Source: Candidatus Omnitrophota bacterium (GTDB lineage: Bacteria; Omnitrophota; Gorgyraeia; Zapsychrales; Zapsychraceae). From it: a stretch of DNA of 64,000 bases. Of the stretch, positions 1 to 64,000 are shown piece by piece. Within the stretch, counting starts at the first letter, position 1. Each line of letters starts with the position of its first letter. Both the position numbers and the translations under genes were made by a program. The DNA is taken from positions 35,735 through 99,734 of the forward strand of contig JACKFK010000010.1 of assembly GCA_020632515.1 (NCBI GenBank). Direction: 5' to 3'. Under the pieces are notes generated by a model. The model saw only the letters and a list, made by a program, of their open reading frames with translations, did no database searches and was not told the DNA's origin.

Positions 1-2027
1 TATTCAGCGGTTTCTTTTGATTCAGTAAACACAATAAGCTTATTGGATTTCAAGACAGCTTTATTCTTTAACGCGCGGATAAATTCTTCCAATTTTGGAT
101 CCCGCACAATTTGCTTCCACAAAGATTGAATGACTTTCAAAATCTTAAGATCATTTTTTAGGCAGCCATAAAACTCTGGCTTAAAATCCTTCGCATCATA
201 GCGTTTGGCTTTCTCGGAATCAATTAATTCCTGAATAGCTTTGTCGTCATCAGATTCAATGAGTTCGAATATTTTATTAATATGTTTTTTACTGACATAA
301 ACATTCCCCTTCTCGCACTCGGCAATAAATTTTTCATAGGAAATGATCGTTCGCTCAATTGTTTGTTTAAACGCGTAAAAACTGCTTTCCAGACGTTTGA
401 TAAACAAAATTTTGATAAACTTTCCCATGTTTTTCTGGGCTTGTTCATCGGATTGCTGAACCTCCCCTGTGTAGAAGGTCAATGGCATGTACCGTGCATA
501 TGTAAACTTTTGCGCGATCAGTTCAATTGTATCGGTGAATATTTCATCTTCTTCATCATTAAGTTGATAAAGTAATGGCTTAGGCGGGGCGACATCTGGA
601 AACTTCATCCCCTGTCGCGCCAAGTCTTCACCAAAAAATGCCTCAATCTCTTTACGAGTACGACGCACCATTAAATGCTTCAGCACTTTGTCCCTAATCT
701 CTCTGGCGTTAGCTTTGGCGACAGCCATATATTCATCACGGTCACGCTTTCGATCAAGCTTCTTTAATTTTCTGTCTAATTCATTAAAGAACCGTTCAAG
801 ATCCGGAACGTTTGGAATTGTACTTTTGCGTGTATTTTGAAATAACTTTATTTGACTAAGAATATCCAAAGGGGAATTATTAAAAGGAGTGGCCGTCACA
901 AGGATGACTCTCTTACCTCGGCAAATTTGCGCAAGTTTCGTATAGGTGACATTGTTTTCTGACCGAAAACGATGAGCCTCATCAATAATGATATTCTTGT
1001 ACTTCTCAACACCTTGCTTGATAAGTAAATCAAGTTTACCAATAGACTCATAATCAGCCGCTTCTTTAAAATCAGAGAACGCATTAGGCCATGATCCGGG
1101 ATTACTTCTTTCTAAAAGCACAGGCGGAGCAAGCACCAGTGTTCGCCCGTCACGAAGCTGACTGGCTAATAACGTCGCGATATATGTTTTACCCAAACCG
1201 ACAACATCCGAAATAAACACCCCACCGTATTCTTCCAATATCTTTTTTGCGTTAATAACTGCCTGCTTTTGATATTCCAACTCTTTATAACTCTCCGGAA
1301 TATATTTCATGATAACATCTTGCCCTTGAGCTAGGTCTTCCTTGAAATACTCATATAAAAACTTCAGGTACAATTCATAAGGAGTGACTGAATCATTAAG
1401 CCATGTCCGCTCATTAATTGTTTCAAGATATTTATCCTTAAGATCGACCGCATCTTCCCAGAGTTGATTAAATTTATCCTGAGCAAACTCATAATCCGCG
1501 CGATTTTTAAGTTCAACATTAAACTCAAGATTATCTATTAGTCCAGATTGTGTGAAGTTGCTTGATCCAGTTATAACACGCCCAGCATCACGGTCATCAT
1601 CCAAAAACGTCATAATATAAAGTTTGGCATGAATATTTTTTGATGGATAGGCTTTAATTTCCAGCTTACCTGACTTAAGCCATTCAATGAACTTTTGGAT
1701 ACCTTTTTCAACTTGGACAGAATCGTCAGAGGTTTTTAGTTCTTCAGCAACCATTTCTCCGAAAGTTTCTCTAGCTTCAGGATGGCTAAAGTCAATTTCA
1801 TGCTGAGCTAACACAACTCGATCGTGAGTTTGTTTATCAGTATTTATTCCAATAAGGATGCGAATTTTTTCGGTATTTTCTAATGAAGCGTAAAGGGCAT
1901 GAAAACCACTGGTATAAAAATATCCAACAAGGGCATCAAAGGAACACGTACTTTTAATCAACACACGGAAGCGTTCCGCCAAATTTTGATTCTTTTCATT
2001 GGTAATAAAAGTTAAATCGCTCGACAT
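1..2027 (-). CDS. PLD-like (HKD) nuclease domain fused to SNF2-family helicase; C-terminus runs off the window start
   Basis: My own translation from the ATG at 2027. It is not in the ORF track because it is open at the window edge. Sequence: MSSDLTFITNEKNQ... It has the HKD-type motif NIHAKLYI..ITGSSNFTQSGL, then helicase motif I DVVGLGKTYIA, motif II IIIDEAHRFR and motif III LVTATPFNN. The frame is open for all 675 codons. Confidence 0.8.
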   Translation of the reverse strand, partial: MSSDLTFITNEKNQNLAERFRVLIKSTCSFDALVGYFYTSGFHALYASLENTEKIRILIGINTDKQTHDRVVLAQHEIDFSHPEARETFGEMVAEELKTSDDSVQVEKGIQKFIEWLKSGKLEIKAYPSKNIHAKLYIMTFLDDDRDAGRVITGSSNFTQSGLIDNLEFNVELKNRADYEFAQDKFNQLWEDAVDLKDKYLETINERTWLNDSVTPYELYLKFLYEYFKEDLAQGQDVIMKYIPESYKELEYQKQAVINAKKILEEYGGVFISDVVGLGKTYIATLLASQLRDGRTLVLAPPVLLERSNPGSWPNAFSDFKEAADYESIGKLDLLIKQGVEKYKNIIIDEAHRFRSENNVTYTKLAQICRGKRVILVTATPFNNSPLDILSQIKLFQNTRKSTIPNVPDLERFFNELDRKLKKLDRKRDRDEYMAVAKANAREIRDKVLKHLMVRRTRKEIEAFFGEDLARQGMKFPDVAPPKPLLYQLNDEEDEIFTDTIELIAQKFTYARYMPLTFYTGEVQQSDEQAQKNMGKFIKILFIKRLESSFYAFKQTIERTIISYEKFIAECEKGNVYVSKKHINKIFELIESDDDKAIQELIDSEKAKRYDAKDFKPEFYGCLKNDLKILKVIQSLWKQIVRDPKLEEFIRALKNKAVLKSNKLIVFTESKETAE

Positions 2028-2072
2028 ATTATTAATTCCAATTGATATTTTAACTTTCTATAAGTTCAAATA

Positions 2073-2250
2073 TTAGACATTTTTCCTTGAGTTTATGAAC
2101 TCATCCAAATCCTCTGGCTTAATCCGCCACTTCCCTATTTTGACTGCCTTTATCTCTTTGGCGTTGATTAGGTCTCGAACCCATTCTTCCGTCACATCCA
2201 GTTTTTCTGCCACCTGTCGAACAGTCAAATAATTTTTTAGATCATCCATA
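2073..2250 (-). pseudogene. Excisionase/MerR-type HTH DNA-binding protein, apparently frameshifted
   Basis: The ATG at 2250 gives MDDLKNYLTV. One base later the next frame reads RQVAEKLDVTEEWVRDLINAKEIKAVKIGKWRIKPEDLDEFINSRKNV*, a typical excisionase-family HTH. The span is 178 nt (3n+1), with an extra base in the A3 run at 2220-2222. Alternatively a 46-aa product could start at the GTG at 2213. Confidence 0.5.
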
Positions 2251-2284
2251 TCATGACCTCTCTATTTTGGATTATTTATCAACT

Positions 2285-2328
2285 CCCTATTACTCCATAA
2301 TAGTCCCTATTGTAGTCCTATAAATACT
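2285..2328 (+). repeat. Four phased 10-12 bp direct repeats between the HTH and RadC-like genes
   Basis: CTCCCTATTA / CTCCATAATA / GTCCCTATTGTA / GTCCTATAAATA, read directly from the sequence. Confidence 0.6.
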
Positions 2329-2358
2329 TTTGGTCAAACAATGAAAAAATATATTAAT

Positions 2359-2772
2359 CTACAAATTATTATCATCACAAAAACTGTAATATGAATTATC
2401 CGCAATAATCACATGATCCAATAATTTGATCCCTAAAATATCTCCTGCTTGTTTAAGTTTTTCCGTTGCCCTTATATCTTCTCTTGATGGCTGCGGATTG
2501 CCTGAAGGGTGGTTATGAGCCACGATTAAGGATACGATCCCCTTAATACAAGCCCTTCGATAGATTTCCATAACATGACAAGGACATTGATTAATAGCTC
2601 CTAAATGAACAAGATCAATATATTTTATATGGTTCTGAGCATCTAAACCAATGGCCCAAAAATGTTCTTTTTCTTGATCCAATGGATCTTCTGATTTTAA
2701 AATTTCACCCAGAATATTTTTAATGCTTTCTGAAGACACAACCTGTTCTTTGCTTTTCAATTTGATTTCCAT
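2359..2772 (-). CDS. radC: RadC-like JAB/MPN domain protein
   Basis: It carries the JAB motif VAHNHPSGNPQPSREDI, preceded by HFWAIGLD...YIDLVHLG. The likely start is MEIKLKS at 2772, with AAAGGGG upstream. The ORF track extends it to 2817. Confidence 0.8.
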   Translation of the reverse strand: MEIKLKSKEQVVSSESIKNILGEILKSEDPLDQEKEHFWAIGLDAQNHIKYIDLVHLGAINQCPCHVMEIYRRACIKGIVSLIVAHNHPSGNPQPSREDIRATEKLKQAGDILGIKLLDHVIIADNSYYSFCDDNNL

Positions 2773-3216
2773 GATGATGACCCCTTTCGATTTTTTTGAG
2801 GTCAAAAACCACATCAATAGTCAAGGATTCATGACTACCAAACAATCAGGAATGAACTTGCAGCCGTAAGGCAGTCCTTGACGATGTGGTAAAATCGAGA
2901 AACCCGAATCGAAATATAATATGAGTTATCCCATAAAATAATAACCACTCCTAAGACAAAACGCCTTGTTTAAGCAAATATTGAGACGGTTTAATACAAA
3001 TATTTGTTTGCTGAATATTTCTTGTGGATACTGACGTGATATGGACAGCTTGCACCTGCCCACAACACTTGGATAACTCTGGCGAGTTAACACACAGTAC
3101 CCACAAGTGCTACGGCTAGTTTCAAAATATATAAAATTTACACCATAAAAAAATGATTTATGTTATAGTTATGTTTCCTTACTAATTATCTAAGAGAACA
3201 CTTGGAGGAGAAATAT

Positions 3217-4818
3217 ATGGAACGTATATGCGGATTATATGCCCGTGTTTCAACTGAAATGCAGGCCAATAAACAAGACAGCTCTATCGATACTCAAATC
3301 AGCCGAATGAAAAGCTTTATTTCCTATAAATCCGGTGATAAAGATACTTGGAAGGTAAAAAAGGTTTATCAAGAAAAAGGTAAATCTGGTAAGAATGTCA
3401 ACCGTCCTCAACTTCAGACTCTATTTAAAGATATTAAAGCTGGAAAAATCAATACGGTTGTTTGCGCAAAGATTGATCGCATTAGCCGCTCCCTTCTGGA
3501 TTTCTATAAAATGGTTGATCTATTTGAACAACATAATATTGAGTTTATTTCTCTGGATGAAAGTTTTGATACCTCTACCCCAATGGGTAAGGCTGCCTTA
3601 AAAATTACGCTTGTATTTGCCGAACTTGAACGAGAACAGACCTCCAAACGGACTAAAGAAAAAATGGCGTGGCGTGCTGAACAGGGATTATGGAATGGCG
3701 GACAAATATTAGGTTATGACCTTGTGGATAAAAAATTAGTCGTAAATAAAAAAGAGGCCAAACTTGTGAAACTGATGTATGAAAAATATATCGAGCTTGG
3801 CTCTCTCCTGCAGGTTGCCAATTGGTTAAACGAGCATGGATACAGAACTAAAGAATATGTTGCCAATAAAAGTCAAAAAAAACACGGCGGCTGTAAATTT
3901 ACCAACACTTATGTTTCACATAAATTAAAAAGCCGCGTCAATATTGGAGAAGTTGCTTTGAAAGACAAATATTTCAAAGGACAGCATGAGCCCATTATCG
4001 ACAAAGCTCTGTTTAATCAGGTAAATACATTATTAAACAATCAGTCTCCTACGCGCCGTAATCCAAAGCAGAAAAAAGAGCACACCTTCATCCTTCAATC
4101 ACTTGTTGAATGTGGGAAATGTGGGGCTTACATGACAACCAAATATGCCACGAGTAAAAGCAAAAAACGTCATTTCTATTATCAATGCACAGCCAATTCT
4201 CATGGGGGTAAAAATGCCTGTGAAATGAAATATGTGCCTGCGGAGAAACTTGAAGAATTTGTTATGAATAAAATAAAGTCATTATCTAAAAATCAGGAAT
4301 TCCTGAATCAGATTATTCAAGAAGCCAACAAATCTGTTGATAGTCTTTTAGAAGGACAACTGGAACGCAAAAAAGGTCAGGAAAACAAACTTCTAGCTGT
4401 AAATAACCAGATTGAAAACTTAATTGATGCCATTGCTAATAATAAAGTTTCGAATTTTAAATCTTTGGAAAATAAAATGGCAGATTTGGAGGAACAGAAA
4501 AAACAACTGGAACATGCTGTTAATGTATTAAATTTTGAAATCGAAGATAAGAAACAAAAAGTTTACAATGCGGATGTTGTGCATAAATCTATGAAGAAAT
4601 TTAACGAGATTTATGAAAAAGCCACGCCACAGCAAATCAAAGACCTTCTCCCCTACTTCATAAAAAAGATCATCTTTTCGCCACAAGAAATAAAAATAGC
4701 CCTTTTCGATCAACCGACCGATCAAGGGCTATCTTTTGTTAACCACTCCAGTGAGTGTTCTCTGGAGTTATCTAAATGGCTCCCCCGCGAGGACTCGAAC
4801 CTCGGACCCAGTGGTTAA
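3217..4818 (+). CDS. Large serine recombinase (resolvase/invertase N-domain, recombinase domain, zinc ribbon, coiled coil)
   Basis: MERICGLYARVSTEMQ is the catalytic Ser region. Also present are DRISRSLLDF, the Cys cluster CGKCGAY..YYQC, and a C-terminal coiled coil. GGAGGAG lies upstream of the ATG at 3217. The last ~14 codons lie inside tRNA-Asn. Confidence 0.85.
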   Translation: MERICGLYARVSTEMQANKQDSSIDTQISRMKSFISYKSGDKDTWKVKKVYQEKGKSGKNVNRPQLQTLFKDIKAGKINTVVCAKIDRISRSLLDFYKMVDLFEQHNIEFISLDESFDTSTPMGKAALKITLVFAELEREQTSKRTKEKMAWRAEQGLWNGGQILGYDLVDKKLVVNKKEAKLVKLMYEKYIELGSLLQVANWLNEHGYRTKEYVANKSQKKHGGCKFTNTYVSHKLKSRVNIGEVALKDKYFKGQHEPIIDKALFNQVNTLLNNQSPTRRNPKQKKEHTFILQSLVECGKCGAYMTTKYATSKSKKRHFYYQCTANSHGGKNACEMKYVPAEKLEEFVMNKIKSLSKNQEFLNQIIQEANKSVDSLLEGQLERKKGQENKLLAVNNQIENLIDAIANNKVSNFKSLENKMADLEEQKKQLEHAVNVLNFEIEDKKQKVYNADVVHKSMKKFNEIYEKATPQQIKDLLPYFIKKIIFSPQEIKIALFDQPTDQGLSFVNHSSECSLELSKWLPREDSNLGPSG

Positions 4819-55147: not shown

Positions 55148-55235
55148 TGGCGGAGAGGCAGAGATTCGAACTCTGGAAGGGTTGCCCCTTAACGGTTTTC
55201 AAGACCGCCGCTTTCAACCGCTCAGCCACCTCTCC
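55148..55235 (-). tRNA. tRNA-Ser (anticodon TGA), CCA encoded
   Basis: The acceptor is GGAGAGG/CCTCTCC and the anticodon loop is CTTGAAA. It has a long variable arm and the T-loop AGTTCGAATCT. Confidence 0.9.
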
Positions 55236-55305
55236 AAATACAATAAACGACTGTTTTCTATATAGTTACAAAATAGTTACAAAACTTTTAACTCTTGACG
55301 CTTTT

Positions 55306-55604
55306 TTAGATTTTACCACTGGGGACTAAATTAGAACCAATACCATTGGTTTTTAATTTGAAACTTTGTCCAAGGACTTCAAGAGCCCGTTTTTTATGAT
55401 CCAGTGATACATGAGAATATCGCAAAGTCATTTTTATAGTTTTATGCCCCCCAACAATTCTCGAACAGTATTCAAATCTACTCCATTCATAACTAAATAT
55501 GATGCAAATGTATGTCTTAAATCATGAAAATGAAAATTATTTATACCACATCTTTTTAACGCTGTCGAGAAAGAAGTTCTAATAGTTTTTAAACTGTACC
55601 CCAT
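55306..55604 (-). pseudogene. Tyrosine integrase C-terminal fragment, frameshifted
   Basis: ...FHFHDLRHTFASYLVMNGVDLNTVRELLGG then, after a frame break at the G6/C6 run (55447-55452), KMTLRYSHVSLDHK. The N-terminal two thirds are missing. Confidence 0.75.
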
Positions 55605-55660
55605 TAACAAATGGAGTAATTTAAGGTAGAATTAGCTCACAACCAAAAGGAGCTGATTCT

Positions 55661-55747: not shown

Positions 55748-56170
55748 CAATCCACATCCTCTTCGAATACTTTGCCCAAGATGCTTTCGCCACCAATTCA
55801 CCACTTCTCGCTTCACCTCAGGCTTTAAAACTTTTTTCCGACAACCTCCTTTAAACATCTTATATCTAATGCCTGTTCTGCCACCATCACCTTTAACTTC
55901 TTATTCTCTGCTTCTAATTCTTTCAGTCTTTGTACATCTTTTCGTTCCATTCCTTCTAATCGATTCTTCCACTTATAATATGTTCTATCATTTATTCCAT
56001 TTTGCCGGCACGCCTCTTTTACTGGCATTCCTGCCTCAATCTCCTTCATCACTTTAATGATTTGTTCATCTGTAAATTTTCTCTTTATTGTCATCTCAAG
56101 CTCCTTTCGAGCTTGTTCTATCATATTTTTATCGTACCTTCAAGTGGTCCTATCAATGGGGGAAAGCCAA
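55748..56170 (-). mobile_element. Truncated IS3-family element (left end, orfA, start of orfB)
   Basis: The terminus is TGGCTTTCCCCCATTGATAGG. The A6G slippery motif lies at 55831-55837, at the orfA/orfB overlap. orfB breaks off after ...RRGCGLLK. Positions 55874-56170 are identical to 59546-59842. Confidence 0.8.
55825..56124 (-). CDS. IS3-family transposase OrfA (HTH plus leucine zipper)
   Basis: KRKFTDEQIIKVMKEIEAGMPVKEACRQNGINDRTYYKWKNR...LKELEAENKKLK. Confidence 0.85.
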   Translation of the reverse strand: MIEQARKELEMTIKRKFTDEQIIKVMKEIEAGMPVKEACRQNGINDRTYYKWKNRLEGMERKDVQRLKELEAENKKLKVMVAEQALDIRCLKEVVGKKF

Positions 56171-56267: not shown

Positions 56268-56612
56268 TTACCTACTTAATTTAGGGTTCACAGTTCTCAT
56301 GGCTTCAGAAGCACACGAAGAATTTCGATATAGTTCTTCTAACTCATCATCTGTCTTAGAAAATTTCTTGCCGTAATTCATGAAATATTTCTTAGGTAAG
56401 TTTGCATTTTGTTCATCAGTCTTAACTATTTTAAATTGTCCAGGATCAAAAGTACTGGGTGATTTAACTAGCTCAAATTGGTATATAAAGCCATCATCAT
56501 CACAAGCTTCATACTCATTATTTTCAACATCAATAGCTTCGAGATTACTCTCTACTTCTTTCGTAGAATTAAAAAGATAAATTTCATCTCCTGTTTCATT
56601 TACTATAATCAT
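56268..56612 (-). CDS. Putative immunity protein for the upstream Rhs toxin tip
   Basis: This small acidic ORF sits immediately downstream of the Rhs C-terminal domain. The assignment is positional only. Confidence 0.5.
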   Translation of the reverse strand: MIIVNETGDEIYLFNSTKEVESNLEAIDVENNEYEACDDDGFIYQFELVKSPSTFDPGQFKIVKTDEQNANLPKKYFMNYGKKFSKTDDELEELYRNSSCASEAMRTVNPKLSR

Positions 56613-56636
56613 TCTTTTCTCCTTAAATCAATGTTA

Positions 56637-57575
56637 TTAAAAACCTTCCCATGGGCGATGCCTTCCAATCCCTCCACCAGGTTTAGTTATTCCAGTTTTA
56701 GGGTCAACTATGCGACGATGATAATGGGGCAGCCGACCTAAAGGATTTGAACTATTTCTACTTCCAAAAGGATTAATTCGAAAATTTACTTTACCATCAT
56801 TCTTAAAAAATATTTCTCCCCCTTTTATCCCAGTTTTTATTCCAGCCTTGCTTGTTGCCTTTGCAATGCCTGCACCTCCAAGCGTTAACTCCGCACCTGT
56901 TGCAGTATATCCTCCTGCGGAATAGGCATTAGAACATTTATCGACGACATCATTAAATTCACCTATTTCTCGAATATAGTTTGTTCCTCCGAAGGTAATT
57001 GTATCTCCGAATCCTGCTGAAAAATTTGAAGAATCCCTAAGAAAATCATACCAAGAATACAATCCATATGGATCGATAAAATTTATAGGATTATTAAGTG
57101 TATATGCATAGAGATTCATCGAATCAAAATACCCCAATGGATCTCTTTGTAGGAACCGACCTATTAAGGGGTCGTACTGTCTCGCCCGGTAATAATAAAT
57201 CCCTGTCTCTTCATCCCATCTGCGTCCGGTAAACATATATGGGTTGTTAATGTTGCTGGTTGCTAGTTGCTGGTGGCTGGCATCAAAAATACTTGGATTC
57301 CCAAAAGCGTCGTAAGTGTAACTTTCAACAACAGCGCCTGTATTATCGGTCATTTCGGACACACTGCCCAGACCATCATAATGATAATAATAATCGTTAC
57401 TGCCGCGTTCCATCGTTAATACTTCATCAATGGAATCGCCCAGGACATATTCCGCGTTAAGACTGCCGGAAGAATCGTATTCCGCGATGACGGAATCATC
57501 ATTATAAACAAAATACGTTGTTACGCCATCTACTGTTTTGGAAATTCTTCGGTTAAACGCGTCATAAATGAGCAC
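56637..57575 (-). CDS. Orphan Rhs/YD-repeat C-terminal fragment with variable toxin tip
   Basis: It contains YD repeats (YDAFNRR, YTYDAFGN). The Rhs core ending is RARQYDPLIGRFLQRDPLGY...NLYAYTLNNPINFIDPYGL, followed by a unique tip of about 130 aa. The frame opens only 312 codons from its end, so there is no Rhs shell. Confidence 0.8.
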   Translation of the reverse strand: MLIYDAFNRRISKTVDGVTTYFVYNDDSVIAEYDSSGSLNAEYVLGDSIDEVLTMERGSNDYYYHYDGLGSVSEMTDNTGAVVESYTYDAFGNPSIFDASHQQLATSNINNPYMFTGRRWDEETGIYYYRARQYDPLIGRFLQRDPLGYFDSMNLYAYTLNNPINFIDPYGLYSWYDFLRDSSNFSAGFGDTITFGGTNYIREIGEFNDVVDKCSNAYSAGGYTATGAELTLGGAGIAKATSKAGIKTGIKGGEIFFKNDGKVNFRINPFGSRNSSNPLGRLPHYHRRIVDPKTGITKPGGGIGRHRPWEGF

Positions 57576-57981: not shown

Positions 57982-58299
57982 CTAAAGATATGGCTCAACC
58001 CTATCCTTCAGAATTTTAACCAATTCTTCATCCATAAATTTAAATTTGTCTGGAATATCCAATGATATTAACCGTTGTCCCTTTAAATACTTTTTAAACT
58101 GGTTTTGAACTTTCTTTTTGTATTTACCTTCCATTACAAAGATTACTTCTGCCCATTCAATGTCCTCAGCACTAAGTTTAATTTCTGAATTATTATTTAG
58201 TCCAGCGGATTTAACCTCTAAATCCTCATATCCCGAGAATATCGCTTCTGCTGTTGGACTCCTTAATTTGTTTTCACCACAAATAAATAGTATCTTCAT
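57982..58299 (-). CDS. Small LMW-PTP/ArsC-fold phosphatase-like protein
   Basis: The N-terminal P-loop reads ILFICGENKLRSPTAE (C-x5-R-S). Confidence 0.65.
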   Translation of the reverse strand: MKILFICGENKLRSPTAEAIFSGYEDLEVKSAGLNNNSEIKLSAEDIEWAEVIFVMEGKYKKKVQNQFKKYLKGQRLISLDIPDKFKFMDEELVKILKDRVEPYL

Positions 58300-59463: not shown

Positions 59464-59545
59464 TTTTAACCTCGCTTTTTAAACAAAAAGTATGCTCCAT
59501 GCGAAAACGTCCATATGGAAAGAAAAATACATAAAAACCAAAATA

Positions 59546-59842
59546 TGTTCTGCCACCATCACCTTTAACTTCTTATTCTCTGCTTCTAATTCTTTCAGTC
59601 TTTGTACATCTTTTCGTTCCATTCCTTCTAATCGATTCTTCCACTTATAATATGTTCTATCATTTATTCCATTTTGCCGGCACGCCTCTTTTACTGGCAT
59701 TCCTGCCTCAATCTCCTTCATCACTTTAATGATTTGTTCATCTGTAAATTTTCTCTTTATTGTCATCTCAAGCTCCTTTCGAGCTTGTTCTATCATATTT
59801 TTATCGTACCTTCAAGTGGTCCTATCAATGGGGGAAAGCCAA
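59546..59842 (-). mobile_element. Second truncated IS3 left-end copy (297 bp identical to 55874-56170)
   Basis: Base-by-base comparison shows identity. The chimeric ORF 59479-59796 shares its first 83 residues with OrfA and then diverges. Confidence 0.85.
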
Positions 59843-60005
59843 TAAAAAGAAACGGGCGAGAATACCTGAGGGGTATGATCTCGCCCGTAAATCGTGCACG
59901 ATTTCCAGTTTAAAATCTTGTTCTGTTTCCCCTCAGGTTTTTTGCTCTCCTTAGTTATCGCTCGAATTGCCGAGAATGGCAACACCTTTTTTATATCAAC
60001 GGAGT

Positions 60006-60467
60006 TTACAGTCCAAGCAAATCCCAGCGATCCAAATATTGCTTTTCTTCGTCCCTAAACTTTCGCATGGGATTGTCTTTGTGCTTTTGCCCTTTACGCC
60101 CCGGAGTTGCCAACCATTCCTTGTGAAACTTCTTTGAAAACTCTGCCACCTTTTTGCTCGGGACGACGTAATAGCTTGGCGCTTCCCCATAGTTGAGATT
60201 TACAAAGACATAAAATAAATTGTCTGCATGGTAATCTTCCGACTTTATGCCAAGCATCCATTCTTTTGAATTCCCCTGATTGGTTTTAACCTGAATCGCC
60301 GCTGATTTGGTCGCATCTTCATTCGTCACCAAAACATCTACGCCTCGTGAATTTCTGAGCGTAATGCTGGCAATATAACCTCGTCTCGAAAGCTCTCCAG
60401 CACAAAGATATTCGCCTGCGACACCACTTAAAATTGAACTTAACTTTTCTTTAACCATATACGTCAT
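60006..60467 (-). CDS. PD-(D/E)xK (Hjc/restriction-endonuclease-like) nuclease candidate
   Basis: AGEYLCAGELSRRGYIASI..SRGVDVLV....AAIQVKT gives the E...D...(Q)xK arrangement seen in archaeal Hjc-like folds. Confidence 0.55.
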   Translation of the reverse strand: MTYMVKEKLSSILSGVAGEYLCAGELSRRGYIASITLRNSRGVDVLVTNEDATKSAAIQVKTNQGNSKEWMLGIKSEDYHADNLFYVFVNLNYGEAPSYYVVPSKKVAEFSKKFHKEWLATPGRKGQKHKDNPMRKFRDEEKQYLDRWDLLGL

Positions 60468-60529
60468 CCAATCTGAATGTAGACGATCCTCTGTAGATAT
60501 ATCGCCTACACAATGGGATTATATGCTAT

Positions 60530-60769
60530 ATGGTTAAAGCGTTCAAGCGTAAAAAGATATGTATTAATTTCGGTGAGATTGTTCGTGCAAAACGTCACAA
60601 GCTCGGATTGTCTCAAGAGGCTTTTGCTGAACATGCTGACCTACATCGTACGTATATCAGCGATATTGAATTAGGTAAGGTTGATGTTGGAATTAGCGTT
60701 GCCCAAAAAGTTGCGAAAGCTTTGAAAACACCATTGAGTAAACTTATCAAAGACATAGAAAGTAAGTAG
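60530..60769 (+). CDS. XRE-family HTH transcriptional regulator
   Basis: IVRAKRHKLGLSQEAFAEHADLHRTYISDIELGK is a canonical Cro/C1 HTH. Confidence 0.85.
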   Translation: MVKAFKRKKICINFGEIVRAKRHKLGLSQEAFAEHADLHRTYISDIELGKVDVGISVAQKVAKALKTPLSKLIKDIESK

Positions 60770-60774
60770 CCTGT

Positions 60775-63639
60775 CTAAGTCGGAAAATTGTATTTTTGTT
60801 CCCTTTTTTGAAACGCCTCCGGTCCCCCTTCAAGCACATACCAACAGTGTTGTCGAATACCTTTTTGATTAAGAACAGATTTTTCTTCATCATTCTCAAA
60901 AGTATTTTCCAATCCACCTGATACATAGCTGATATATGCAGGTTGCAAGGCTTTGTCCTTCTCGAAATTTGCAACAATAACTTGTTCTGAATCAGTATTC
61001 ACAACCAAATTAGCGTTATGGGTTGCTATAATCACTTGTCTTTTATTCTTCGCTGTTCTGAAATAATTGATTAGTGTTTGATACACCGACCTATTATCCA
61101 GATTTTCCTCGGGCTGATCAATCAAAATCGGTTTAAAATCTTCATCAAGATCCAAGTATAAAATCAATAAAGCAATCCCCTTTAATCCTGGAGTCAATTC
61201 GTCCAGCTTCTTTTCATCAAATTCGATTGAATAGGATAACTTGTAATAATCTATGTTCGTTAACCATTTATAAAAATCAGCTATTGTAAAATTATTGTTC
61301 AACTGTTCTATGAGTAGCTTCTCCTTGAATGGAACATCTTTGTATCTAAACGCTCCAACAATTAATTTTATAAATTTACTTATTGTTTGAGAATTTTCTT
61401 CATCTAATCTTTTGCCCACACCTTCAGACCTCAATTCACTCTCTAAGTTTAACTTCATAATCTCCTGCTTTGCAGATTCAATCGTTTTCTGAAGTTCTCT
61501 ATAGTCTTTATATTGAAAGTTTCCTGACTTTCTGTGATCAATCAAAGCATCACCAAGTTCCGTCATCTTCTTTGAATCAAAAGTTAACCGAACATTAAAT
61601 CTAAACAATCTCCTCTCATCTTCCTGCTTCTCAAGTAAGGTGGTCTCTAATGGATTATAAATTTCTTCCAACGATGCTTTTTCTTCAAACAAAGTCACGA
61701 AATATTCAAAAAAAGCATTAGCCAATTTTAATTTAGAGTCTTTCAGTGTTTTTTGAGCCAAGTTTGAAGCCTTTAACTTTTCTCCAAGAGCATCTGTCTC
61801 TTCCTTCAACTTCTTATTTAAATCACTTAACGAAGTCAACCTTTCCTGCCGAGTCTTTTCTAGATTTAACTGCTTCACTATACTTGCAATATCCTGCTTA
61901 AGCTTACCCAGCTCGGTATTCTTACTTGAAATATCACTTTTATTTGACGTCTTCTGTTTTTCTAATTGAACAGAAAAGTCCTTTGGTTCAATCGAAACAG
62001 AAATTATCTGTTTAAGCCCAATCCCCTTAATTTTTTCGTTTATGTTAAATACTTTAGTTGATAAATCGCCTTTCAAATCTTGAATTTCATTCGCAACAAC
62101 ATCTATTGATCGGATGCTTTGGGCTAGAATTGAGATGCTCTTTTCAAGCAAAGCTTTCTTTTCATTCAAATCATTGTATGACGTCAATAATTGCTTTTTT
62201 TCTTCCTGCCCTTCAGTAATAATTTTGGTGATGCTCGTTATTTCCTTTGCATTCTTTAAATATTCCTTTTCTCTTCGTGAAATCTCTTCCTTAATCTTAT
62301 CAATTTCAAGGACTGAATTAACCTTTTCATTAACTTCATCACTAAAACTTTCAAGCTGTAATTTAATCTGATTACGCTTTCTATTTATTAAGTCAAGCTT
62401 TGAACTCTTAAACTCTCCAAAACTGCTGTAAATAGCTTTTTCTTCATCTCTAACCTTCTGATAAATAACACCCTCAATCTGCTTTTGCAAAGCTTCAACT
62501 TGTTCTTCCGAGCACAAACGTTTCACGAAGCCTTGCGATAGATAAACTACCTTTTTATTTGGATCATCACCGTCATCCCAGCTTATTCGCTCAATTTGGT
62601 TAAGCTCAACTAAATCCTCTTCTTCATCCTCCCACTTCAAAGATAATCCAAGTTTTGGAAAATGCCCCTCCGCTTTCTTTAAAAACGAGTCGTCGTTTTC
62701 TGTTATTTCTTCCCAGTCTTTGTTAGCTGTTATTGTTATCAAATCTAATAACGCTGTCTTACCTGTCCCACGACCACCAATAATACTCACAAGATTAGAG
62801 TTAAGCTGAAGCTCCTTTTCCTCAAACCAACCGTTTGAATTTCGTATGCTGATTGATTTAATAACTTTACTATTTTCAACTTTAGCGGAAGGCTCATCGC
62901 CAATGTAAACTCTGGATGGTTCGTAAATGATTTGTCTTAATCCTTCAAAGGTTGGGTCTGCCTTAATCCAACAATTTGCTTTTAATGAATAATTATTAAT
63001 ATTGTGATTGTCAGAACAAATAACTAGCGGTTTCTCTAGCTTGATTACAGGAAAAACTTTCTCTTTATATCCCTGCATATCCTCTGTTTTACCAATCTCG
63101 TAAATATCAATGGCACCGCATATTTCAGTTTTTTGTGCTTGTTTGTGTGACAAGGCATTTGTGATATTTTCTAAAGAATTGCTCTTTGTGCCTGCATGGA
63201 TAGAAATTAAACCACCAAGTTCATGGATTAACTTAGATGTGTCCATCAAATCTACACGAACATTTTCATGCCCTACTTTCTTGATATCTGATGCAGTTAG
63301 ATTAAGCTGCCCTTGCAACTTGGTCCAAATGGTGTTGATATCTGCATTTTCGGGAAATATTCCTATATAGTGAATTGATTCAGAGCCTCCAAGCTCCGAT
63401 CTAAACTCAATCCCTGGTAAAATTGTAATATCATCTTTCGCTAACTGATTTAATGCATTTATACGCTCAACATCAATGACATGATGATCCGTAATAGCCA
63501 CCGTCCTAATCTCATTATCTTTTAATTTTTGGATTAACTGCTCGTTAGAGACGAATTTATCCTGATAATCAAATGAAGACGGTGTATGGAAATGCAAATC
63601 CCATTTTCGCCAGATTGAACCTTTTGGATATTTAAACAT
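60775..63639 (-). CDS. PHP-domain phosphoesterase fused to SMC/RecN-like ABC ATPase with long coiled coil (Ppl-like)
   Basis: PHP motifs are WDLHFHTPSS, AITDHHV, SIHAGTK and CSDNHN. Walker A GGRGTGKTALLD is present. About 350 aa of heptad-rich coiled coil follow. The C-terminus carries GLKGIALLILYL, Walker B PILIDQPEENLD and ATHNANL. Confidence 0.8.
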   Translation of the reverse strand: MFKYPKGSIWRKWDLHFHTPSSFDYQDKFVSNEQLIQKLKDNEIRTVAITDHHVIDVERINALNQLAKDDITILPGIEFRSELGGSESIHYIGIFPENADINTIWTKLQGQLNLTASDIKKVGHENVRVDLMDTSKLIHELGGLISIHAGTKSNSLENITNALSHKQAQKTEICGAIDIYEIGKTEDMQGYKEKVFPVIKLEKPLVICSDNHNINNYSLKANCWIKADPTFEGLRQIIYEPSRVYIGDEPSAKVENSKVIKSISIRNSNGWFEEKELQLNSNLVSIIGGRGTGKTALLDLITITANKDWEEITENDDSFLKKAEGHFPKLGLSLKWEDEEEDLVELNQIERISWDDGDDPNKKVVYLSQGFVKRLCSEEQVEALQKQIEGVIYQKVRDEEKAIYSSFGEFKSSKLDLINRKRNQIKLQLESFSDEVNEKVNSVLEIDKIKEEISRREKEYLKNAKEITSITKIITEGQEEKKQLLTSYNDLNEKKALLEKSISILAQSIRSIDVVANEIQDLKGDLSTKVFNINEKIKGIGLKQIISVSIEPKDFSVQLEKQKTSNKSDISSKNTELGKLKQDIASIVKQLNLEKTRQERLTSLSDLNKKLKEETDALGEKLKASNLAQKTLKDSKLKLANAFFEYFVTLFEEKASLEEIYNPLETTLLEKQEDERRLFRFNVRLTFDSKKMTELGDALIDHRKSGNFQYKDYRELQKTIESAKQEIMKLNLESELRSEGVGKRLDEENSQTISKFIKLIVGAFRYKDVPFKEKLLIEQLNNNFTIADFYKWLTNIDYYKLSYSIEFDEKKLDELTPGLKGIALLILYLDLDEDFKPILIDQPEENLDNRSVYQTLINYFRTAKNKRQVIIATHNANLVVNTDSEQVIVANFEKDKALQPAYISYVSGGLENTFENDEEKSVLNQKGIRQHCWYVLEGGPEAFQKREQKYNFPT

Positions 63640-63827
63640 AGAATGACTTTCTAGTTATTTATTTGAACTTATATTTTATCAAATTTCGGTAATAATTGTA
63701 ATCTTTCGCAACCCTCAGAATTCCACCTCATTACAACATATTTTTGGATTTACTCAGGAATTTGGGTCAAACGGACAGGAAGACGAGCCACAAGGAAGGC
63801 AAAAAAGGATGGTGGTGGTAAAGACCC

Positions 63828-64000
63828 TACTTATCTTCTTCATTTTCGTATACATAAAACTCTCCAAAGTGTGTCTTTTCTGTTTCTTTAACTTTCTCAG
63901 CTAAAATTTTTATATCGTCTTCAACTTCAAAATTCGAAACACGCTTTTCAAATAATTCAACGTCTTTGATTTCTTCAACGTCATACTCATGTTCATACGC
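63828..64000 (-). CDS. C-terminal end of a hypothetical protein (N-terminus beyond the window end)
   Basis: My own translation: ...YEHEYDVEEIKDVELFEKRVSNFEVEDDIKILAEKVKETEKTHFGEFYVYENEEDK*. The frame is open to the window edge. Confidence 0.4.

Follow-up and report, generated by a model that had tools for sequence, protein, structure and literature searches.

The stretch analysed here, called the window throughout, comprises 64,000 nucleotides of contig JACKFK010000010.1 from a Candidatus Omnitrophota bacterium (assembly GCA_020632515.1, positions 35,735 to 99,734 of the forward strand). It is chromosomal DNA that also carries dnaX and further core genes, and towards its end lie three closely packed genes that a preliminary description had put forward as a candidate defence cluster: a gene for a 954-amino-acid (aa) protein joining a PHP metallo-phosphoesterase to an SMC-type ABC ATPase, likened there to the anti-phage protein Ppl, a gene for an XRE-family helix–turn–helix (HTH) regulator, and a gene for a small PD-(D/E)xK nuclease. 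The listing of open reading frames (ORFs) bore out all three genes with their positions and orientations, and a motif check found the PHP motifs that had been quoted. The genes, and the parts into which the large protein divides, are as follows.

60775..63639, minus strand: trlF-family gene, 954 aa, intact (NF045780 match, AlphaFold model)
62890..63639, minus strand: PHP metal-dependent phosphoesterase domain, aa 1–250, with a predicted nuclease active site (Pfam PHP, 2.5e-5)
62440..62862, minus strand: predicted ABC ATPase head N-lobe, aa 260–400, with Walker A GGRGTGKT (K294) and Q-loop Q369 (weak AAA_23/AAA_29 matches; model)
61660..62421, minus strand: predicted antiparallel coiled-coil insertion, aa 407–660 (AlphaFold model, Foldseek)
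60778..61605, minus strand: ABC ATPase head C-lobe, aa 679–954, with signature PGLKG, Walker B ILIDQPEE, D-loop D848 and H-loop H874 (AAA_21)
60530..60769, plus strand: XRE-family HTH regulator, 79 aa (HTH_3 match)
60006..60467, minus strand: small stand-alone nuclease of PD-(D/E)xK fold, 153 aa as listed (fold, homologues)

The XRE gene and the large gene converge, with their stop codons 5 bp apart (60770–60774), and the XRE and nuclease genes diverge across a gap of 62 bp.

The large protein matches the NCBIfam equivalog model NF045780, "TrlF family AAA-like ATPase" (TrlF_fam_ATP), with 540.1 bits against a cut-off of 350, and the E-value of 1.7e-161 excludes a chance origin of the profile match. 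The alignment runs end to end, residues 6–951 covering positions 1–944 of the 944 in the model, and the whole-protein score, the N-terminal PHP ligands and the split ABC motifs are all those of the TrlF family. Among the candidates scored, 2750 homologues were found at E ≤ 1e-10, the closest being 48% identical, and RefSeq labels plasmid homologues of the protein as TrlF family. By sequence comparison, the 954-aa gene is an intact, divergent member of a catalogued family, to be annotated as a PHP nuclease–ATPase; what is new is the divergent member, and the curated TrlF family was already known. A PHROGs search with the protein gave no match, and sequence searches of the Protein Data Bank (PDB) found no full-length relative, with the profile returning only PHP or Rad50 fragments. 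The family takes its name from the "temperature restriction locus" (TRL) of Photorhabdus laumondii, an operon trlR–trlF–trlG in which trlR codes for a putative regulator of 79 aa, the product of trlF is large and annotated as histidinol phosphatase, and that of trlG has AlbA_2 and HATPase_c_4 domains (PMC7554251). Induction of this operon arrests growth at 36°C, and trlG mutations or deletion of the operon restore growth at that temperature (PMC7554251).

The PHP domain carries the motifs WDLHFHTP, ITDHH, IHAG and SDNHN, and all its metal ligands are present (H16, H18, D51, H52, E78, H148, D210 and H212), with H18, E78 and D210 invariant across 20 diverse homologues. Those 20 homologues also keep G288, G293, K294 and Q369 of the N-lobe and P817, G818, G821, D841–E844, D848 and H874 of the C-lobe unchanged; the signature PGLKG spans residues 817–821, and Walker B and the D-loop together read ILIDQPEENLD. 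With every PHP ligand and ABC motif kept, the catalytic modules are predicted to be intact. In an AlphaFold model built on the alignment of homologues, with a mean predicted local distance difference test (pLDDT) score of 84, the protein consists of a PHP barrel followed by a Rad50/SMC-like head that bears a coiled coil, and the proposed combination of PHP domain and SMC/Rad50-type ABC ATPase was found by Pfam, NCBIfam, AlphaFold and Foldseek alike. The Walker A and Walker B motifs are about 550 aa apart, confirming that the two halves are widely separated, but the coiled coil between them is shorter than the roughly 350 aa first given: the model shows two helices, 407–539 and 555–660 (~250 aa in total, ~125 aa per arm), with a short apex loop at about 540–555. 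Neither a CxxC zinc hook nor a hinge dimerisation domain is present at the apex, and the only cysteines of the protein are at positions 174, 208, 223, 376 and 932.

Foldseek searches of the PDB matched the PHP part to RNase AM (9etk, 4e-6) and the ATPase with its coiled coil to JetC of Wadjet (9qxu, 3.5e-8) and LmuB of Lamassu (9hqu, 1.4e-6), with further matches to Rad50 (7zr1 and 5dny), SMC, MukB and RecN; no solved PHP–SMC fusion and no Ppl structure was detectable among the PDB entries. The predicted protein resembles Mre11–Rad50/SbcCD in that a metal-dependent nuclease is coupled to an ABC ATPase of SMC type with an antiparallel coiled coil between its head halves, but its nuclease is a PHP domain fused in cis rather than a separate calcineurin-like Mre11/SbcD subunit, its coiled coil is short and without the zinc hook, and its family is not distributed like a housekeeping gene. 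With JetC and LmuB, the best structural matches of the ATPase and coiled coil, it shares the concept of an SMC-like DNA sensor with a nuclease effector; those systems are multi-subunit and include kleisin-like partners, their nuclease (JetD or LmuA) being a subunit of its own, whereas the window protein carries its nuclease in the same chain and no partner was found to be conserved.

Ppl, reportedly described by Gao et al. in 2020 as a single-gene anti-phage system, has the same overall plan, with an N-terminal PHP nuclease followed by a split ABC ATPase and its long helical insertion in one polypeptide of ~900 aa, and both proteins are encoded by single genes in mobile or defence contexts. 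As reference we took the protein annotated in RefSeq as "anti-phage protein Ppl" on an Acinetobacter pittii plasmid. On the Ppl equivalog model NF042955, which has a cut-off of 1000 bits, the reference scored 1078 bits and the window protein only 119.1 (1.5e-34), mostly through residues 7–317, whereas both pass the TrlF model, the reference aligning over its full length at 501 bits. Since the reference Ppl passes that model, Ppl is placed as one clade inside the TrlF family as NCBI's model delimits it, with the window protein in another. BLASTP against the reference gave two collinear blocks, residues 7–308 with the PHP domain and Walker A (25% identity, 4e-17) and residues 810–946 with the signature, Walker B, D-loop and H-loop (31% identity, 1e-16). 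A PADLOC search, which the preliminary description had suggested, returned the Ppl model (PDLC02208) as its top match with 87 bits (2.1e-25) in two stretches, followed by weak matches to PDC-M49A and LmuB. The kinship seen earlier is upheld by the collinear blocks and the shared TrlF model, while the identity is not; on these scores, "Ppl-like" is right at the family level and "Ppl" is wrong.

TrlF genes are widely and unevenly spread. A scan of one genome per species gave at least 583 loci, among which Nitrospirota, the candidate phyla radiation (CPR)/Patescibacteria, Bacteroidota, Bacillota, Actinomycetota, Pseudomonadota, Planctomycetota, Acidobacteriota and Methanobacteriaceae are represented. 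In a context sample of 80 loci with 10-kb flanks, restriction–modification (R-M) genes (HsdS, HsdM, HsdR, Mod or Res) lie within 4 kb of TrlF in 16 loci, and integrases do so in 10. The Pfam families among the 142 nearest neighbours include ResIII (8), DEAD (7), Methylase_S (5), SWI2_SNF2 (4), integrase (4) and HSDR_N (3), together with RloB, nSTAND3, Fic, PIN and a BsuBI/PstI endonuclease. No recurrent partner of TrlF emerged from BLAST clustering, from the Pfam search of these 142 neighbours, from phmmer with a TrlG seed or from an iterated hidden Markov model (HMM) of the XRE family. All five of the closest homologues that could be placed on contigs are within or beside R-M operons. The first follows a PLD–SNF2 helicase, an MmeI/Eco57I-type methyltransferase and a 160-aa ORF, and the second an Eco57I-type methyltransferase and a 246-aa ORF. 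The third (L183, 3417–13161) stands with a TrlG-like gene (AlbA_2 and HATPase_c_4) between Type III mod and res, in the order mod, TrlF, TrlG-like, res; the fourth has the order mod, res, TrlF; and the fifth (L185, 715–8747) has hsdM, KwaA, KwaB, hsdS and TrlF, with Kiwa and TrlF nested in a Type I operon.

Mobile elements carry the family as well. Many genes on RefSeq plasmids are annotated as TrlF family, and Staphylococcus epidermidis has a solo TrlF gene flanked by a gene for an Fst toxin and a recombinase gene. The lactococcal phage-resistance plasmid pNP40 (L187, Lactococcus lactis, NC_010901.1, 11074–14944) carries a TrlF gene that scores 491 bits on NF045780 and lies directly 3′ of a DUF2130 gene. 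The anti-phage systems tested in a study of the lactococcal plasmidome (PMC11381338) do not include these two genes, and the pNP40 protein is neither Rugutis nor Audmula, which are SEC-C and transglycosylase-like proteins. In a small Vibrio prophage, a TrlF-like gene adjoins the integrase. There (L182, Vibrio phage 10N.286.54.E11_PE001, PQ189346.1, 14 kb, Vinavirales), the TrlF-like region at 1343–3959 is annotated as two coding sequences, one for the PHP part, with the label "DPO3A", and one for the ATPase part, and is either a split gene or frameshifted or mis-called. Loci whose tblastn match covered only residues ~203–950 were considered as possible PHP-less forms and proved to be full-length TrlF by HMM (638–704 bits). 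TrlF behaves as a stand-alone gene of mobile elements and defence islands with a patchy spread, which is not the distribution of a housekeeping repair gene. The preliminary description had named a housekeeping repair family without defence-island association as the finding that would speak against it; the search led to the TrlF family and to R-M, plasmid and prophage contexts.

The grouping of the three genes into one cluster did not stand. Relatives of the 153-aa protein were found by BLASTP in none of the 80 TrlF loci, and TrlF in none of the 91 loci (L089–L179) sampled from metagenomes, genomes and viral contigs for the context of the nuclease family. BLASTP found XRE relatives in 6/80 TrlF loci and adjacent in none; the iterated XRE-family HMM placed such a gene no more than 300 bp from TrlF in a single locus and within 1 kb in three, and in none of the 80 was an XRE gene convergent to TrlF. 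The same three-gene arrangement, 100% conserved, was met elsewhere on four short metagenome contigs only, which are not independent evidence because they are the same sequence from the same strain. A lack of co-occurrence of the neighbours was the other finding that the preliminary description had named as counter-evidence. As the nuclease and XRE genes do not co-occur with TrlF, the proposed three-gene system fails, and the three genes are a chance juxtaposition in a tRNA-linked defence island. The annotation is corrected to that of a TrlF-family PHP nuclease–ATPase, a relative of Ppl, which is neither Ppl itself nor part of a new three-gene system.

In the published account (PMC12904381; Xu et al., Mol Cell 2026, cited in PMC13434339), Ppl is described as a 3′–5′ exonuclease of single-stranded DNA that is kept inactive by nucleoside triphosphates (NTPs) bound to both the PHP and the NTPase domains, and that is activated when a phage depletes NTPs and phage homing endonucleases supply 3′-OH ends. 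Because both catalytic modules of Ppl are conserved in the window protein, an NTP-gated PHP exonuclease would be expected here too. We therefore consider it likely, though some way from assured, that the 954-aa protein is a non-Ppl member of the TrlF family acting as a stand-alone, nucleotide-gated DNA exonuclease against foreign DNA, with the XRE–nuclease pair separate from it. With Ppl as the closest model, the PHP domain would be an ATP- or NTP-gated exonuclease; binding of ATP would bring the ABC heads together as a dimer; and DNA would be bound, clamped or sensed by the coiled coil and SMC-like head, as in Rad50/SbcC. On this model, the role of the Mre11/SbcD nuclease would fall to the fused PHP domain, making the protein a fused analogue of SbcCD/Mre11–Rad50 directed against foreign DNA. 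We infer the substrate, polarity, trigger and defence phenotype by analogy, and since no alignment with Ppl was obtained for the middle region, the trigger and sensing surface may differ from those of Ppl.

Four other readings were weighed against this one. That TrlF, the XRE protein and the nuclease form one defence system, with XRE as its regulator and the nuclease as a second effector, is suggested by the tight packing, by the conserved arrangement on the four contigs and by the 79-aa regulator of the Photorhabdus operon; against this stand the identity of the four contigs, the empty counts in both context samples, the near absence of XRE genes beside TrlF and of any convergent one, the recurrence of the XRE–nuclease pair alone and the different base composition of the nuclease gene described below, and the Photorhabdus TrlR gene, which is upstream and co-directional rather than convergent. 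We regard it as very improbable. An orthologue of Ppl, that is, the system of Gao et al. itself, can be given hardly any credence: the shared architecture, the PADLOC and NCBIfam Ppl matches and the homology at both ends are outweighed by a score of 119 bits where the Ppl cut-off, which the real Ppl exceeds, is 1000, by a best stretch limited to residues 7–317, and by an identity of 25–31% with a middle of ~500 residues that does not align.

A housekeeping repair enzyme, an analogue of SbcCD/Mre11–Rad50 or RecN serving host hairpins or double-strand breaks, would agree with the structural matches to Rad50, RecN and SMC heads, with the SbcCD-like logic of a nuclease with an SMC-like ATPase and with the chromosomal setting. 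Such a role is nevertheless quite unlikely, as TrlF is sporadic and non-syntenic across phyla and domains, is common on conjugative plasmids and at prophage or integrase-proximal sites, and is found inside R-M operons and beside Kiwa; in the window, it lies among an integrase fragment, insertion sequence (IS) and RHS debris near a tRNA, and its closest relative among the candidates scored is 48% identical, where core genes are usually better conserved. The remaining alternative, a TRL-type component of stress response or growth arrest that needs TrlG, with the window copy a functionless orphan, we also judge unlikely, if worth keeping in mind. The family is named after trlR–trlF–trlG, whose induction arrests growth, and close homologue L183 has a TrlF–TrlG pair; by description, the Photorhabdus protein belongs to the same curated family NF045780, being likewise large, with a PHP domain and an earlier annotation as "histidinol phosphatase", and a 79-aa HTH gene is nearby in both. 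The window nevertheless does not qualify as a TRL operon: no AlbA_2 gene was found at 55–64 kb or in the ~700 bp past its end, so that it is without TrlG, and the XRE gene is convergent, downstream and paired with a nuclease, whereas the TrlR gene precedes trlF in the same direction. Of the 80 TrlF loci, only one has a TrlG-like gene, 4.2 kb away, and AlbA_2 is outside the 25 commonest Pfam families of the nearest-neighbour scan; trlF mutations had no part in the TRL phenotype (PMC7554251). Ppl, within the same HMM family, acts as a single gene, and the window trlF is fully intact.

Several observations weigh against a stand-alone anti-phage exonuclease. Most sampled TrlF loci (80%) have no R-M gene within 4 kb, and no experiment on anti-phage activity of non-Ppl TrlF proteins was found in the searchable literature. 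In the sole genetic work on a protein called TrlF, from the Photorhabdus locus, every suppressor mutation mapped to trlG, with trlF unmutated (PMC7554251). A model dedicated to TrlF is missing from PADLOC v2; its PDC-M49A model matches weakly, and its Ppl match is weak overall, with the best stretch N-terminal at model positions 4–323 of 894; likewise, identity to Ppl is low and confined to the catalytic blocks. Finally, the window copy stands in a decayed island behind a promoter that is a weak consensus match, and it may be silent.

By passing the TrlF model, the experimentally characterised Ppl ties a named defence protein to a much larger family whose sole published phenotype is the temperature-restricted growth of Photorhabdus, a point that would be of consequence if confirmed. 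With TrlF members in R-M operons, next to Kiwa and on pNP40, a general role as NTP-gated anti-phage exonucleases becomes directly testable, and so does the idea that the "temperature restriction" of Photorhabdus is autoimmunity of a defence system. A broader picture is offered as a tentative conjecture that may well not hold: the thousands of non-Ppl TrlF proteins, in CPR bacteria, in archaea and on staphylococcal, lactococcal (pNP40) and enterobacterial plasmids, would be widespread single-protein immune nucleases, preferentially placed inside Type I and Type III R-M operons, whose divergent coiled-coil middles sense triggers other than that of Ppl; separately, the XRE-controlled 150-aa QxK nuclease would be a new regulator-gated solitary nuclease module, defensive or selfish.

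The XRE–nuclease pair beside trlF has its own control region, with the following features.

60449..60539, no strand: divergent control region of XRE and nuclease, with a perfect 13-nt inverted repeat TATATGGTTAAAG
60546..60518, minus strand: strong promoter-like site for the nuclease (TTGAAC-17-TATAAT, 10/12 matches), overlapping the XRE start

The XRE assignment of the 79-aa protein was confirmed (HTH_3, PF01381, 3.9e-13), as were its convergence with trlF and divergence from the nuclease; it also matches the PADLOC R-M "Control_protein" model (1.6e-17). For the nuclease, the probable start is the ATG at 60458, giving 150 aa, as in the gene called in the identical contigs and in the homologues. 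The arms of TATATGGTTAAAG, at 60449–60461 and 60527–60539, span the start codons of both genes, and because the repeat overlaps both, the two proteins both begin Met-Val-Lys (MVK). By our own rough estimate, the chance of a 13-nt inverted repeat in 131 bp is ~1e-4. The repeat may serve as two operator half-sites or, alternatively, as a symmetric element of translation initiation, and other XRE–nuclease loci have their own, different inverted repeats in the same gap.

No Pfam model reached threshold for the 153-aa protein, a sequence search of the PDB returned nothing, and PHROGs gave families of unknown function only. It belongs to a widespread family with strikingly high conservation and has 1878 homologues, of which the 120 best-scoring are 62–81% identical and include metagenome-assembled genomes (MAGs) named Elusimicrobia and Chloroflexi; an exhaustive search put the family at 4013 clusters at 50% identity. 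A few NCBI MAG records name members "aspartate ammonia-lyase", which looks like a mis-annotation. The invariant residues are E25 in helix 1, D44 and Q59-V-K61, so that QxK replaces (D/E)xK, a candidate catalytic pattern that is compatible with known PD-(D/E)xK variants, and a C-terminal motif, TPGRKGQxHxDNPMRxFxD...WDLLGL, is conserved. In the PDB, Foldseek matched the model (pLDDT 93) to the DREN domain of SPARDA, Hjc, I-Ssp6803I, EcoRV and PvuII, at 7e-5 to 3e-3 with template-modelling (TM) scores of 0.45–0.58 for DREN, Hjc and I-Ssp6803I; viral PD(D/E)XK, NOV_C and DUF4365 proteins were matched as well. From this model we are confident that the protein has a PD-(D/E)xK core fold, and the Hjc-like fold proposed in the preliminary description is borne out. 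It shares with DREN (DUF4365-type), Hjc and I-Ssp6803I the core, the acidic residue of helix 1 and the D...x-K pattern, but is a stand-alone protein with QxK and a conserved C-terminal extension that those lack.

The contexts of the nuclease family are highly variable. In about 7 further loci, none with TrlF, a nuclease homologue is preceded, 57–67 bp away, by a divergent XRE relative with 37–41% identity, and the partner search found this minority of XRE genes (7 loci) and a ParB-like methyltransferase in 6/91 loci, with no general partner. The G + C content at third codon positions (GC3) is 0.44 in the nuclease gene as against 0.33 in trlF, XRE and nearby host genes, and this difference suggests that the nuclease gene is of different and more recent origin. 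Since the pair recurs without TrlF, it is an independent, divergently transcribed and probably autoregulated module that lies beside trlF. We interpret it as a regulator-gated solitary nuclease module, which could act in Type IV-like restriction, as a toxin-like element or as a selfish element. In its match to Control_protein models, its position adjoining a nuclease gene and its inverted repeats, the XRE gene resembles the C-protein genes of R-M systems. These are usually transcribed together with the endonuclease gene and precede it, whereas here the regulator is divergent from the nuclease, and no methyltransferase accompanies the cluster or most loci of the nuclease family; no DNA methyltransferase was found at 55–64 kb of the window. 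In some loci (L090/L091, 4171–5453), the nuclease gene overlaps an upstream 277-aa gene by 4 bp. The C-terminal half of the 277-aa protein has a similar-looking motif, GVDLIV...FLQIKGR, suggesting tandem proteins of related nuclease fold, and the island around them has genes for an integrase, a Type IIG-like methyltransferase, DUF3800, DUF2971 and NERD.

Three further features mark the surroundings of trlF.

63673..63702, minus strand: promoter-like site upstream of trlF (ATTACA-18-TAAAAT, TG extension, 9/12 matches; by consensus only)
55148..55610, minus strand: tRNA-Ser(TGA), then a 58-aa tyrosine-integrase fragment; context (ARAGORN; Phage_integrase 2.3e-11)
63826..64000, minus strand: 3′ end of a 105-aa acidic ORF, which follows an RHS toxin C-terminus outside the window; context

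Because the promoter-like site falls in the 187-bp gap 5′ of the gene, its position suggests that trlF is its own transcription unit. A scan found no terminator-like hairpin between the convergent stop codons of trlF and XRE, and because of this and of their 5-bp spacing, the two transcripts may overlap as antisense RNA.

The preliminary description had placed the cluster in a decayed island next to a tRNA. The island and its toxin/immunity debris are there, but the tRNA-Ser-TGA (55148–55235, by ARAGORN) is ~4.8 kb away from the three genes rather than adjacent; with the integrase fragment, it is likely the island boundary. Between tRNA and cluster lie the integrase fragment, two copies of IS3 OrfA, a piece of an RHS toxin and an incomplete LMWPc gene. 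The IS3-family OrfA (HTH_Tnp_1) copies, at 55825–56124 and 59479–59796 on the minus strand, have identical first 83 residues, the 3′ end of the second being either cut short or diverged. The RHS C-terminal fragment, 312 aa, and the 114-aa ORF downstream of it occupy 56268–57575 (minus strand). At 57982–58299 (minus strand), the match of a further 105-aa ORF to the LMWPc model (low-molecular-weight phosphotyrosine phosphatase/ArsC-like fold, 1.7e-6) is confined to the first ~50 positions, and the ORF appears to be a truncated gene within the island.

Metagenome contig L085 is 100% identical to the window from 59822 to 64000 and continues ~700 bp beyond it. Together with window 63826–64000, L085 1–879 holds an RHS tip ("...DPYGE" and ~120 aa) followed by the 105-aa acidic ORF, which together are a polymorphic-toxin/immunity cassette separate from trlF, 187 bp off. 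No Pfam match was found for the toxin tips of the two RHS remnants, both of which look like orphan toxin/immunity cassettes. At its other end, L085 stops at window position 59822, ~25 bp from the OrfA copy at 59479–59796, which would fit an assembly break at the IS3 OrfA repeat.

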